64,000 nt of DNA from an uncultured Solirubrobacteraceae bacterium (GTDB lineage: Bacteria > Actinomycetota > Thermoleophilia > Solirubrobacterales > Solirubrobacteraceae), in assembly GCA_963779065.1 (NCBI GenBank), contig CAVZWQ010000003.1, positions 1,675,502-1,739,501 of the forward strand, given 5' to 3'. Made by a program: the position numbers and the translations under genes. This document shows, piece after piece, positions 2,543 through 6,608 of this stretch. The notes beneath the pieces were generated by a model that saw nothing but the letters and a program-made list of their open reading frames with translations, made no database searches and was not told where the DNA came from. Each line of letters starts with the position of its first letter. The stretch's first letter is position 1.

Positions 2543-3418
2543 CTATTCCACGCACTGCCCGTTTTCGCAGTTCCCCGACGGGCAGACGTTCCCGCACGCG
2601 CCGCAGTTGTTCGCCTGGTTGAGGTTCGTGCAGACCTTGTCCTGGCTGCCCGCGACCGGGCACGGCCCGTAGTGGGCCGCTTCGTCGGCCGGCACGTTCC
2701 AGTAGACGTTCGCGAAGGTCGGGCAGTCGATGCAGCAGCCGCACGTCGCCTTCTGGCCGGCTTCCCACGCTTCCTGGCCGGTCCCGGTCGAGGACACGGC
2801 CGCGTAGTAGGCGTGGGCGACCGTGAGGCAGAACGCGTACTGGTTGGCGTGGATGATTTCGTTGGCGACGGTGTTCGTCGGCCAGGTCTCTTCGCAGATC
2901 GAGAGCATCTGCGTCAGGAAGTTGCTGTCGCACTGCGCCTTGTCGCTTTCGCACGCGCCGTAGCAGCAGTCGTGGCCCTTGCACGCGTTGAAGAAGTTGG
3001 CGACGCCGAACGGTTCGTCGGGCACGTAGTCGCCTTTGCCGAAGACCGGCAGGTCGATGCCGCCTTCGGGGCCGCAGCCGTTGAACGTCGAGGGGGTGCC
3101 GAGGACGATCGTCTCGCTGCACGCCGGGGTCCAGGGCCGGATCCCGCCGTTGCAGCTCGCGATCCCCGAGGGCTGGGCCGGGCAGATGCCGTGCTGTTTT
3201 TCGGCCGCGCGGGCGAGGGGAGCCGCCGCCGTGCCGCCCGGCGTCGTCCCGCCTGCTCTGGCGAGCGCCGGACGCGCCCAGCCGGGGACCAATGCGCCGA
3301 GCGCGGCCCCTGCCGCGAGCTTCAGGACCTGCCGGCGGGAGTGGCCGCGGGAGGCCAGCGCGAGCGCGTCCAGGCGCGCCGAACGCTCGCCGCCGGGCCG
3401 CTCAGAGAGGCCAGTCAT
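2543..3418 (-). CDS. Tat-exported cysteine-rich protein with a group XII-like phospholipase A2 domain and a C-terminal Cys-rich (Stig1-like) module
   Basis: SRRQVLK twin-arginine leader; NGCG ... ACKGHDCCYGAC...KAQCDSNF...IC matches the PLA2G12 pattern; 22 Cys; NNCGACGNVC tail. Confidence 0.8.
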   Translation of the reverse strand: MTGLSERPGGERSARLDALALASRGHSRRQVLKLAAGAALGALVPGWARPALARAGGTTPGGTAAAPLARAAEKQHGICPAQPSGIASCNGGIRPWTPACSETIVLGTPSTFNGCGPEGGIDLPVFGKGDYVPDEPFGVANFFNACKGHDCCYGACESDKAQCDSNFLTQMLSICEETWPTNTVANEIIHANQYAFCLTVAHAYYAAVSSTGTGQEAWEAGQKATCGCCIDCPTFANVYWNVPADEAAHYGPCPVAGSQDKVCTNLNQANNCGACGNVCPSGNCENGQCVE

Positions 3419-3800
3419 GTCCGGCCTTGTGCGCCTTGGCGCTCGCTGCGCTCAGCGCCGCCATGCCTTCGGCGGCGATTTCGAGCGTCTTGTTCGGATC
3501 GGCCGCCTTGTTCGCGGCGATCAGCTTCAGCAGCCCGGCTTCCAGCTCGGCGAGCCCGGCGACGACGAGCTTCGTGTGCCTGCCGGCGCCTTCCTTCTTG
3601 ACCTGCGCCCGCACCGACTTGATCGTCGCCAGCAGCGGCTTCGCGGTTGCGGAGATGTCATGCGGACCGGCCGTGGCCGTACCCAGCGCCGCCTTCAGCT
3701 GCAGGGTGACGGCCCGGCTCTGCGCGCGCGCCTTCGTGCGATGCAGCTTGAGCTTGGCTTTCCCCTTCGCGGCGGCGGCCTCGGTCGCGAGCTCGCTCAT
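3402..3800 (-). CDS. Hypothetical Ala/Lys-rich helical protein (132 aa)
   Basis: ATG at 3800 overlaps the upstream stop (ATGA); the end overlaps the start of the PLA2-like gene; normal high-GC codon pattern. Confidence 0.7.
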   Translation of the reverse strand: MSELATEAAAAKGKAKLKLHRTKARAQSRAVTLQLKAALGTATAGPHDISATAKPLLATIKSVRAQVKKEGAGRHTKLVVAGLAELEAGLLKLIAANKAADPNKTLEIAAEGMAALSAASAKAHKAGHDWPL

Positions 3801-5267
3801 GCCGCGACCTCGCTGACGTGCAGCAGCGGGGCGGGCATCAGCGCGAGGATCGCCTCGCGGCCGATCGCGGGCGGCGCCGCGAGCGTGCCGTCGGCGGCGA
3901 CCAGCAGCGCGGAGGGCGTTCCCCGCGCGCCGAGGCGCCTGACGGCGGCGCCCCGGCGGTCCTGGAAGACCGGGAAGTCGAAGCCGAGCGCGGCGATCTC
4001 CTGCTCGCTGCCCGTGCTCAGAAGCACGATGCGCGGGTCGGCCTCGCCGAGCCGCGCCGCGCGGCTCGCGAGGTCGCGCTCCATGCTGCGGCAGAACCCG
4101 CAGCCCGGGTTCCAGAGGACGAGCAGCGTGGGACGATCGCCCGCGAGGACCGAGGCCGAGTCGCGCGGCCGGCCGTCGAGTTCGTGGAGCTCGAGGGCGG
4201 GCAGCACCTCGCCGACGCGCGGACCGCGCTCGCGGCGGCCGGCGGCCTCGTGCAGCACGCCCGTCACGGCCTCGGAGCCGAGGGCGAGGGACGTCGCGAC
4301 GCGACCATCGCCGTCGATCACGACTGCCGCCGGCGTCGCGCCGACCTCGAAGCTCTTCGCGGCCTCGCCGCCCTCGTCCGACATCACGCCGCTCAGGCCA
4401 TGCTCCTGCGCCTTCGCTCTCGCATGCTCGAGCGAGCCCCGGGTCAGGACGCCGATCGTGAGCTCGTCGCCGAGCCGGCGCTGGAGATCGGCCAGCTCTC
4501 CGAGCAGCGCGTTGCAGGGAGCGCAGCCGGGGTCCGCGAACACGAGGGCGAGAGGGCGCCCGGCGACGAACAGCGCGTCGAGGCCGACCGGCGCGCCGTC
4601 CTCGGCGCGCCGCGCCCGGAACGCCGGCGCCTCGCTCCCCACCGGGAGGTCCCGCCGCCCGGGCCGAAGCCGCGTCGAGGAGGGAGTCGGCTTTGACGCC
4701 CGTGTGCATCTCGAGCGCCTCCAGGCGCGCGACGAGCGTGCCGTGGCGCCGCAGCAGCCCGAGCGCGAAGAAGGTGACCGCGGCGAGCGCCGCGCTCAGC
4801 GCCGCGCCGCCGGCGAGGACGGCCAGCTGCGCCCCGGAAAGGGCGCCGAGCCACGAAACAGCGCTCGGCCCCGGATCGCTCCAGCCGAGCACCAGCACGA
4901 GCGCGGCGAGGAGCCCGATCAGCGCGTTGCGCGCCAGGGCCGCGGGCCCCGCGGGCGCGGAGTGAAGCTGCCCGAAGCAATGGCACTCGGGCTGCTCGCC
5001 GCGCGCCATCGCGAGGGCGATCGCAGCGCAGAAGCCGAGCAGCAGAGCGAGCGCGCCGGCCGCCCCGAGGGGCGCCGAGGGCGGGATCAGAAGTGCCGCC
5101 GCGACCCCCAGCTCGAGCAGCGGCAGCGCGGTGGCGAGCGGGGCGGCGAGCCTGCGCGGGACGCGGAATCCGGCCAGCGCCTGAGCCGCCCCGGCGCGGT
5201 CCGCGAGCTTGGCGATCCCGGCGGCGAAGAAGACGGCGGCGAGTGCCAGACGCGCGCTGAGCAGCAT
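3797..5267 (-). CDS. MauE/DoxX membrane domain fused to two TlpA/MauD-like redoxin domains, frameshift near 4650-4680
   Basis: ARLALAAVFFAAGIAKL, CHCFG and ARNALI motifs of MauE; then APAF...PGCAPC and WNPGCGFC thioredoxin-fold CxxC motifs with ATP/GTP cis-Pro loops. Confidence 0.85.
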
Positions 5268-5363
5268 CGGGGCCTGACCCTACAGTCGCCCCCGGCGGCG
5301 CTCCTCTCATCCCCCGTTCGGCTACGCTCCTGATAACCGCAGCGCTTGGGAGGAGGGGAAGAA

Positions 5364-6608
5364 ATGGCATCGACGAGCAACGAGTCGCGCTCGCTCGAGA
5401 GCGTGCGCGTCGGCGACCGCGAGAACTTCGCAGAGGGCCCGCCGCACGAGCTGTTCAAGGAGATGCGGGCTCGCTGCCCGGTCCACTGGAGCGACGGGAT
5501 CAGCGAGTACCCAGACGAGGACGGCTTCTGGTCGGTCACGACCGCCGAGGACGTCCACGAGGTGAGCCGCGACTGGCAGACCTACTCCTCGGAGATCGGC
5601 GGCATCACGGCTCTGAAGAACGCGATCCTGCCGCTGGAGCTCCAGCAGGCGATGTTCATCGGCATGGACCCGCCGAAGCACGACAGGCTCAAGGCGCTCT
5701 TCCAGCGGGGCTTCACGCCCAAGCGGATCGCCGAGCACGAGCCCGCGATCAGGCAGATCGCCGCCGAGGTGCTCGACGGCCTGCAAGGTCGCGAGGAGTG
5801 CGACCTCGTCACCGATGTCGCGCAGCCCTTCGTCGCGCGAGTCATCGGCAGCTTCATGGGCGTGCCGCCCGAGGACGACGCGATCTGGGCCACGATCATG
5901 AACAACGTGCTCGGCGCGGGCGACCCCGACAGGACGCCGGAGGGCGCCCAGACGGTCGTCGAGAACGAGGTGCCCGAAGTCTTCGAGCGCTGCGCGAAGC
6001 TGATCGCCGAGCGGCGTGCGCATCCGACGGATGACCTCACGAGCGTGCTGGTGCACGCGGAGGTGGACGGCGAAAAGCTCGAGGACCACGAGATCGTGAT
6101 GGGTTTCTTCCTGCTGATGGCAGCGGGCAACGACTCGACGAAGGCCACCTACTGCAGCGGCATGCGCGCGCTGATGGAAAACCCGGCTCAGCGCGAGATG
6201 GTCCTCGCCGACCCGTCGCTCGTGCCGGCCGCGGTCGAGGAGGCGCTGCGGATGTTCCCGGCGTTCGCGCACTTCGCGCGGACGGCGACCCACGACACCG
6301 AGCTGCACGGCCAGACGATCCACAAGGGCGAGAAGGTCGTCATGTGGTACCCGTCCTCGAACCGCGACGAGAGCCGCTACGAGAACCCGGATGCGTTCGA
6401 GATCACCCGGGAAGCCGAGCATCAGGCCTTCGGCGCCGGCGGCCGCCACTTCTGTCTCGGCACGGCGCTCGCGCGACTGGAGCTGCGGGTGCTGATCGAG
6501 GAGACGCTGAGCCGCTACCCGCGAATGGAGATCGCGGGCGAGCCGAAGTTCGTCGAGTCGCCGTTCGCCAACCAGCTGAAGACGCTGCCGGTCAAGCTGA
6601 ACGCCTGA
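5364..6608 (+). CDS. Cytochrome P450 (CYP125/142-like group)
   Basis: MDPPKH, AGNDST I-helix, EEALR (ExxR), FGAGGRHFCLG heme motif; GGAGG RBS. Confidence 0.95.
   Translation: MASTSNESRSLESVRVGDRENFAEGPPHELFKEMRARCPVHWSDGISEYPDEDGFWSVTTAEDVHEVSRDWQTYSSEIGGITALKNAILPLELQQAMFIGMDPPKHDRLKALFQRGFTPKRIAEHEPAIRQIAAEVLDGLQGREECDLVTDVAQPFVARVIGSFMGVPPEDDAIWATIMNNVLGAGDPDRTPEGAQTVVENEVPEVFERCAKLIAERRAHPTDDLTSVLVHAEVDGEKLEDHEIVMGFFLLMAAGNDSTKATYCSGMRALMENPAQREMVLADPSLVPAAVEEALRMFPAFAHFARTATHDTELHGQTIHKGEKVVMWYPSSNRDESRYENPDAFEITREAEHQAFGAGGRHFCLGTALARLELRVLIEETLSRYPRMEIAGEPKFVESPFANQLKTLPVKLNA

Follow-up and report, generated by a model that had tools for sequence, protein, structure and literature searches.

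The window analyzed here is a 64,000-nucleotide stretch of contig CAVZWQ010000003.1 (assembly GCA_963779065.1) from an uncultured Solirubrobacteraceae bacterium. It contains a three-gene operon on the minus strand. Gene 1 encodes a MauE membrane domain fused to two thioredoxin domains, gene 2 encodes a small basic protein, and gene 3 encodes a cysteine-rich protein with the predicted fold of a secreted phospholipase A2 (PLA2) and a putative twin-arginine translocation (Tat) leader. The gene 1 fusion is very probably a dedicated redox partner of the gene 3 cargo. The three genes also occur together in related soil bacteria. Comparable fusions in several phyla are found next to other cysteine-rich proteins with a similar leader.

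Association of the Fusion with Cysteine-Rich Cargo

The best 80 of 566 confirmed fusion loci were examined. They were found by alignment of the N-terminal part, as alignment of the whole fusion gave no searchable pattern, and the set is therefore biased in favor of the Chloroflexota query, L018. The loci come from Chloroflexota, Acidobacteriota, Verrucomicrobiota, Actinomycetota, and Proteobacteria, and the fusions carry one to three thioredoxin domains. A simple search for a cysteine-rich open reading frame (ORF) nearby was uninformative, since it was positive for 45 of the 80 loci versus 60% of random sites. A hidden Markov model (HMM) of the cargo leader was adopted for this reason.

The first leader HMM was trained solely on 16 leaders of PLA2 cargo. 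It recovered 19 ORFs in 17 of the 80 loci. Each of these lay no farther than 1 kb from the fusion and had 8-111 cysteines. The single match of this HMM in the 3.4-Mb host genome was gene 3. A second-round HMM, partly trained on the first-round matches, gave 30 matches in the 222 kb within 1.5 kb of the fusions (28 of the 80 loci) versus 3 in the 506 kb beyond. None of 55 standalone-MauE loci had a match in 1.5-kb flanks (Fisher p 4e-8 versus the fusions, a value that is overstated because related loci are not independent). The count of 28 is a floor, because the HMM misses known cargo. It finds none in genus classes A-C (0 of 37 loci) or at L029, L034, L049, L068, and L093, and genus classes B and C possess twin-arginine, cysteine-rich cargo by inspection. 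The fusion is thus statistically tied to cysteine-rich twin-arginine proteins, an association that the initial annotation had suggested testing.

The same annotation had proposed that the cargo may be swappable between genomes, and this is supported. PLA2 cargo is present in four of the 80 loci, and 15 cargo proteins that were scanned included Stig1-like, Hint-bearing, PqqD-fused, knottin-like, and unassigned kinds. When PLA2 genes were the starting point, a MauE or thioredoxin part adjoined PLA2 in 10 of 15 loci (14 metagenome loci and L004). Several of the remaining loci are short contigs, and L010 has no fusion over 6 kb on either side.

A range of arrangements was seen around the fusions. 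A second fusion, L262 (G277:C20:11000-23500), is ringed by at least 4-6 leader-bearing genes with 8-10 cysteines each. The cargo at L036:3652-5697 has 111 cysteines and a Hint domain at its end. In Acidobacteriota, L068:7609-8265 and L088:8723-9181 encode a PqqD domain, a twin-arginine-like leader, and a core of 12-14 cysteines beside the fusion. Genus class B (L152-L169, e.g., G257:C1:803691 and G115:C1:391907; 14 loci) has a fusion of MauE with a MauD-like CPLC domain, followed by a 10-cysteine twin-arginine protein (SWYRCC, MDCC) and then a membrane protein of ~530 residues. L166 and L170 possess a one-frame fusion of MauE with a twin-arginine, cysteine-rich cargo domain (376-378 residues). 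In genus class A (L132-L149, L005), a nucleotidyltransferase-like gene is followed, ~0.8-0.9 kb downstream, by a MauE-thioredoxin gene, and L132 has a PqqD-like, cysteine-rich frame farther upstream. The PLA2 cargo of L017, L018, L020, L022, and L096 has a leader with an xDxLTR helix that has lost the twin arginines. A second, RR-bearing gene with 20 cysteines lies on the other side of the fusion in L020, L022, and L096.

Gene 1 and its Frame Break

Gene 1 scored 90.3 bits against the MauE family (PF07291, cut-off 27) and 68 bits against AhpC-TSA across two stretches. A CxC-F-G motif between helices 3 and 4 is present, and so are the conserved Lys and Glu. The features of a MauD-like protein, a membrane anchor, a basic segment, and a CxxC thioredoxin fold, were also found. 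The anchor-less frame scored 54.5 bits against the MauD equivalog (TIGR02661) and did not reach the cut-off of 188.6, and by sequence the thioredoxin part of gene 1 is homologous to MauD and no equivalog. The intact fusion of L018 aligns with Paracoccus MauD from the anchor (residue 2) onward (E 5e-10). Gene 1 thus consists of MauE, a MauD-like unit, and one extra thioredoxin.

The initial annotation had described gene 1 as one reading frame with a CHCFG motif and CAPC and CGFC thioredoxin motifs. The three motifs are present; the single open frame is not. The MauE frame starts at 5267, the two-thioredoxin frame ends at 3797, and the frames differ by one base, with third-position GC changing frame at ~4633-4650. 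Read literally, the MauE frame continues out of register into gene 2. An error in the assembly is the most likely cause, because relatives are intact and this assembly has ~0.6 frame breaks per kb. A close relative, L006 (cargo 81% identical), aligns continuously across the position, and L004 and L018 have MauE, the transmembrane helix, and both thioredoxins in one frame. When 63 proteins of a relative (G020) were compared with this assembly, which is rated 58% complete, 19 of 45 usable orthologues were broken (28 breaks, 0.59 per kb), including the EF-G-sized L264_1. The TatC gene is also split and rpoB is intact. Contigs from six read runs, which shared 5-8% of words and represent other strains, did not bridge the break, and no RNA run was among the matches listed. 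A gene that resembles glycoside hydrolase 9 by eye (530-2477) is broken across several frames, a further sign of assembly indels.

That gene 1 is a true pseudogene in a decaying cassette is very unlikely. The break is indeed present in the sequence as given, and the cassette is patchy, with gene 2 in 9 of 401 genomes of the family. Set against this are the broken orthologues elsewhere in the assembly, TatC included, the continuous frame of the close relative, and the intact state of all motifs and of genes 2 and 3.

Gene 3, the PLA2-Fold Cargo

Gene 3 encodes 22 cysteines and has a net charge of -15. Both the cysteine count and the SRRQVLK leader agree with the initial annotation. The twin arginines are invariant in 13 of 13 leaders, and gene 3 also possesses an h-region and an AxA site. 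Tat-signal profile scores were below their cut-offs. By motif criteria gene 3 would be a Tat substrate, and its export is predicted.

Several comparisons point to the same fold. The score against Pfam PLA2G12 (PF06951) was 31.1 bits (E 2.9e-7), below the cut-off of 34, and six of eight relatives matched at E<=0.01. A gene 3 family profile (21 rows) matched 4aup (E 3.6e-8) and 1faz (E 2.2e-7), which are fungal and actinobacterial secreted PLA2 structures. The gene 3 model had a predicted local distance difference test (pLDDT) score of 88.9, and its best structural match was 4aup (Z 8.1, root-mean-square deviation 3.6 A, 95 residues; runner-up Z 5.3). The first five Foldseek rows were all PLA2 (best E 5.7e-3). 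All 21 rows, some of them near-duplicates, have the NGCG loop, H149, D150, Y153, and D164. The His-Asp dyad, second Asp, Tyr, and fold of secreted PLA2 are therefore all found in gene 3, and profile and model together identify it as a secreted-PLA2-fold protein. Once exported, the enzyme likely hydrolyzes phospholipids outside the cell. In L008:4477-5679 and L277, the PLA2 domain carries a cysteine-free, beta-rich-looking tail in place of the cysteine-rich one, so the tail appears to be modular.

Gene 2, a Basic Partner of the Lipase

The AlphaFold2 model of gene 2 had a pLDDT of 81.7, and no signal peptide was seen. Its family (68 matches at E<=0.001, 64 inspected) consists of basic proteins of ~125 residues that are nearly cysteine-free, with 6 cysteines in all across the 64 proteins. 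No family was identified in Pfam, NCBIfam, or Atlas, apart from one weak NCBIfam transposase match that was disregarded, and fold searches gave generic four-helix bundles only (the best, Z 12, being a designed protein). The gene was found in 9 of 401 family, 3 of 401 order, and 1 of 301 class genomes, its own genome counted.

At loci found via gene 2 alone, PLA2 lies directly downstream in all eight that could be evaluated; in a ninth, the contig edge falls inside the cargo leader. The fusion lies directly upstream in four of the nine other loci. In genomes G557 and G950, which lack an adjacent copy, it lies at another site, and a search of one 53%-complete gene 2 genome gave no match. The full order of fusion, gene 2, and PLA2 was seen in L004, L006, L008, L011, L013, L014, L019, L260, L277, L279, and L282. 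No gene 2 match lies next to non-PLA2 cargo. Gene 2 is thus a partner of the lipase and not of MauE, because the pairing follows PLA2. Its charge of +11 is opposite to the -15 of gene 3. Co-occurrence and charge suggest for gene 2 a likely role as a dedicated partner, restraining or escorting the folded lipase. PLA2 and gene 2 form an unannotated enzyme-partner pair, with a new family of lipase partners.

At L261 and L120:2538-2972, another helical ORF of 144 residues, unmatched by the gene 2 profile, separates the fusion from a leader protein that is not a PLA2, and this ORF may encode an analogous partner.

Operon Layout and Surroundings

The coordinates of the features are given in Table 1. 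The order is gene 1, gene 2, and gene 3, and the start and stop codons overlap as initially annotated, with ATGA at 3797-3800 between genes 1 and 2 and 17 nt at 3402-3418 between genes 2 and 3. The conserved MTGRS start of gene 3 is an alternative frame of the final gene 2 codons. The TAGGGT that had been noted just upstream of 5267 was located at 5282-5277. The genome has a GC content of 72%, which, together with its named relatives, suggests Thermoleophilia. On its contig C3, an ATG or GTG follows TAGGGT by 5-12 nt in 55 of 102 cases (a count without a shuffle control), as would suit the -10 box of a leaderless transcript. A sigma-70 scan found nothing. A cytochrome P450 gene on the plus strand (5346-6608) diverges from the operon, 79 nt from the gene 1 start. 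Integration at the tRNA-Val gene was considered and rejected, as no direct repeat of the tRNA 3' end was found near the operon. ARAGORN found a tRNA in only 1 of 19 related loci.

Table 1. Features of the operon and its boundaries (window coordinates).
Feature	Start	End	Strand	Basis
tRNA-Val(CAC), tail to tail with the gene 3 stop codon; boundary marker	2468	2539	+	tRNA scan
Gene 3, variable cysteine-rich tail and stop; 7 Cys, NCGACG motif; Stig1-like in relatives	2543	2722	-	Sequence
Gene 3, PLA2-fold domain; NGCG loop (113-116), H149-D150, Y153, D164; 15 Cys; acidic	2723	3202	-	Profile, fold
Gene 3, cargo leader; (F/L)DxL helix, then SRRQVLK twin-arginine motif	3320	3376	-	Leader HMM; TAT_signal 18.3 bits, cut-off 22.7
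Gene 2; 132 residues, Cys-free, net +11, predicted four-helix bundle, C-terminal W-x-(L/I/A/F) family-wide	3402	3800	-	AlphaFold2, homologues
Gene 1, thioredoxin-fold domain 2 and stop; CGFC at 4091-4102	3797	4225	-	AhpC-TSA, sequence
Gene 1, thioredoxin-fold domain 1, MauD/TlpA-like; CAPC at 4514-4525	4289	4648	-	AhpC-TSA/Redoxin
Gene 1, one-base frame break between MauE and thioredoxin parts, likely assembly error	4633	4650	-	ORF list, third-position GC, alignment
Gene 1, 5' part; four-helix MauE membrane domain with a fifth helix and a basic segment (LLRRHG) matching the MauD anchor	4650	5267	-	PF07291, 90 bits
Gene 1, CHCFG, MauE CxC active-site motif	4971	4985	-	Sequence; conserved K20 and E52 also there
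TAGGGT, 9 nt ahead of the gene 1 ATG; likely -10 box for a near-leaderless transcript	5277	5282	-	Sequence; function putative

Membrane Orientation of the Fusion

Because the Tat system favors folded substrates and the cytoplasm is a reducing compartment, it matters on which side of the membrane gene 1 acts. Orientation was scored by the positive-inside rule, as Lys plus Arg per aligned loop with the conserved Arg and Lys excluded. An excess on the CxC side was found in 79 of 80 fusions (mean +3.4; window +5). The three genus classes were positive in 37 of 37 cases, and the MauE of both Paracoccus and Pseudomonas scored +6. The 55 standalone MauE proteins had a mean of -1.8, with nine positive, which agrees with the periplasmic placement predicted for this type (bioRxiv 10.64898/2026.03.05.709764). 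A count made without alignment gave +7.3 for the fusions (71 of 72 usable positive; window +11). At least two Lys or Arg directly follow helix 5 in 54 of 55 scorable fusions, and both MauD anchors have none before and two after, the reverse of a NapC-type control (four before, one after). In a tree of a 54-sequence subsample, the fusions and mau-type proteins split from 23 standalones with a support of 0.978.

The CxC and thioredoxin domains of the fusions and of classical MauE/MauD are thus predicted to be cytoplasmic, unlike those of generalist MauE. For gene 1 itself, the inward-facing orientation is probable. The new point is a predicted inverted class of MauE, which is recognized by charge and comprises the fusions and the mau-type proteins.

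Both orientations are known in the VKOR family (PMC13486548, PMC4727284), and ApVKORi of Aeropyrum is a precedent for an inward-facing oxidase (PMC13486548).

Proposed Mechanism and Alternative Explanations

Profile searches of the host genome found one MauE above the cut-off, one VKOR, and TatC. The VKOR is a general oxidase, serving outside the cell. DsbB had no match in the host genome, and a search for it in five genomes found none. The neighbor of gene 1 is a PLA2-fold protein and not the MauA of a mau cluster. The initial annotation had excluded mauA, mauB, and mauG. For mauA this agrees in part with the absence of a TIGR02659 match in the host genome, in a search that had no positive control and an assembly of limited completeness; mauB and mauG were not searched.

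It appears possible to join these elements into one pathway. The three overlapping genes would be co-transcribed and translated in a coupled fashion. The precursor would likely be recognized through the helix seen ahead of its twin arginines. On the analogy of DsbB, VKOR, and the two MauE proteins that have been tested, the two thioredoxin domains would then oxidize and reshuffle up to 11 disulfides in the cargo, and electrons would pass through the MauE CxC to quinone. Both the CxC and the thioredoxin sites would be cytoplasmic, to judge from the positive-inside rule. As co-occurrence and charge suggest, the gene 2 product, which is basic, would attach to the acidic lipase and hold the folded form in check until export. 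Finally, the Tat system would export the folded enzyme, and its fold and catalytic residues suggest that it would hydrolyze phospholipids outside. The whole model, in which oxidation in the cytoplasm precedes Tat export and gene 2 guards or escorts the lipase, is the preferred explanation, although the odds for it are about even. A broader reading is put forward more tentatively. In it, the inverted MauE-MauD class, the classical pair included, would be a natural and widespread cytoplasmic disulfide pathway in which substrates of 8 to >120 cysteines are recognized by a helix and handed folded to Tat. The product of the present cassette would be an active phospholipase and would for that reason come with its own cytoplasmic inhibitor, a new protein family.

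A number of observations weigh against this model. The orientation is a matter of charge counting. The count without alignment was neutral for standalone MauE (+0.35; 17 positive and 14 negative of 34), in which it often missed helix 4, and the CxC loop itself has similar Lys plus Arg in fusions and standalones (1.9 versus 2.0). Because the inward class is a single branch of the tree, it represents approximately one evolutionary event and not 80. Across the fusions, the motif of domain 1 is mostly CGPC, which marks reducing thioredoxins. In the assembly as given, gene 1 carries a frameshift. The Ca2+ need of secreted PLA2 is far above cytoplasmic Ca2+, which makes an inhibitor less necessary. 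Five Caldilineaceae-type PLA2 genes beside a fusion retain the first helix of the leader but have neither twin arginines nor gene 2, which argues against a strict dependence on Tat and for a separate role of the leader helix. The initial annotation had called the module private, which does not apply universally: 52 of the 80 fusion loci have no leader match within 1.5 kb, and many Pyrinomonadaceae fusions sit between der-like and tgt-like housekeeping genes, as judged by eye. Three of five genomes of this latter kind (G275, G276, and G278) have no leader match at all.

Every co-occurrence result would fit equally well with a dedicated oxidase that faces outward. The cargo would then cross the Tat system reduced or partly folded and be oxidized at the cell surface, as in DsbB-DsbA or VKOR-thioredoxin fusions, with gene 2 as a pre-export chaperone. 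The two MauE proteins that were tested work in the periplasm (bioRxiv 10.64898/2026.03.05.709764), and five helices with the usual cytoplasmic N-terminus would place the CxC and the thioredoxins outside. However, the tested proteins are four-helix standalones of the type on the other branch of the tree, and the charge bias is opposite in both MauD anchors and in all but one of the 80 fusions. In addition, the preference of Tat for folded substrates and the presence of a VKOR that already serves outside leave this explanation rather unlikely. A protein that faces inward could instead act as a reductase, an isomerase, or a chaperone that holds thiols until export, with VKOR making the final bonds outside. 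The CGPC of domain 1 and the VKOR in the genome would suit such a role, but a dedicated reductase would add little in a compartment as reducing as the cytoplasm. In addition, quinone coupling favors thiol oxidation, and the fusions conserve the CxC, Lys, and Glu found in oxidizing MauE. This role is thus improbable, although an earlier study, to the extent that it is cited in a 2026 preprint, viewed MauE as a possible reductase (bioRxiv 10.64898/2026.03.05.709764).

In either orientation, gene 2 could be a basic subunit that is co-exported with the acidic lipase and aids binding to anionic membranes, with no inhibitor involved. The strict pairing with PLA2, the opposite charges, and the lack of a visible signal peptide of its own are consistent with this. 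Yet in a cysteine-rich exported system it is nearly free of cysteine, as would be expected of a cytoplasmic protein, and Chloroflexota possess PLA2 without gene 2. Co-export is therefore considered unlikely, and restraint or escort of the folded lipase is preferred.

The prevailing view is that, in bacteria, structural disulfides form outside the cytoplasm. To our knowledge, there is no clear explanation for the Tat signals on disulfide-rich proteins such as the light chain of methylamine dehydrogenase, and a literature search found no paper joining the two subjects, with subscription literature largely outside the search. If the model is correct, an inward-facing MauE-thioredoxin would explain these signals, and the fusion would be a single-chain oxidase for producing disulfide-rich proteins in the cytoplasm. 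The cargo proteins would also provide natural substrates for the MauE pathway, which was first demonstrated in 2026.

Relation to Known Systems

No description of the operon, of the family to which gene 2 belongs, or of an inverted class of MauE was found in the literature searched, which largely excluded subscription articles, the original mauE/mauD study among them. Two standalone MauE proteins replace DsbB through an essential CxC, thioredoxin fusions make up 8.2% of MauE entries, and MauA is present in just 10.2% of MauE species (bioRxiv 10.64898/2026.03.05.709764). MauE without methylamine genes is therefore ordinary. The proposal in the initial annotation that the machinery was repurposed from methylamine metabolism is thus neither new nor special, as MauE is a widespread DsbB-like oxidase (bioRxiv 10.64898/2026.03.05.709764). 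Generalist MauE shares the CxC-F-G and the conserved Lys and Glu of gene 1, but the tested proteins are four-helix standalones that are predicted to face the periplasm (bioRxiv 10.64898/2026.03.05.709764), whereas the gene 1 fusion is predicted here to face inward. The main text of that preprint mentions no gene neighbors, Tat cargo, or inverted class; its supplements may list fusions or neighbors.

ApVKORi and the engineered inverted forms of DsbB and VKOR resemble the proposal for gene 1 in that a quinone-linked oxidase family occurs in both orientations, the inward forms making cytoplasmic disulfides (PMC13486548, PMC4727284). They are archaeal or engineered, belong to another family, and, in the accessible parts of these sources, have no Tat substrate tied to them. 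Secreted PLA2 of groups XII, XIII (Tuber borchii, 4aup), and XIV (Streptomyces, 1faz) shares the helical core, C-x-x-H-D-x-x-Y, and second Asp with gene 3, whose NGCG loop and cysteine pattern are nearest to Pfam PLA2G12. Gene 3 differs in its 22 cysteines, Tat-type leader, variable cysteine-rich tail, and dedicated neighbors. Candidate clusters from decRiPPter in Streptomyces have mauE/mauD beside a protein with at least 8 cysteines and lack other mau genes (PMC7794033). They were proposed as clusters for peptides that are synthesized by the ribosome and then undergo post-translational modification (RiPPs); the accessible part of that paper describes no phospholipase, leader family, or topology, and its supplement may list neighbors.

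The closest parallels are mauE-mauD-mauA of Paracoccus denitrificans (NC_008688) and the aau cluster (LT969519). These have the same MauE CxC domain and a MauD-like anchor and thioredoxin, likewise next to a cysteine-rich twin-arginine substrate with a long n-region, and the same predicted inward orientation. The resemblance of the MauA n-region to the cargo leader was seen by eye only. The leader HMM was tried here and does not single out MauA (3.4 and 10.9 bits versus 6.2 and 10.4 for NapA), and AauA had no match. Unlike in the mau cluster, MauE and MauD are fused in the present cassette, a second thioredoxin and an extra basic gene are present, and the cargo is a PLA2-fold protein in place of the tryptophan tryptophylquinone subunit. 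Thus, the cassette is a variation on the logic of mauE-mauD-mauA with a swappable cargo.

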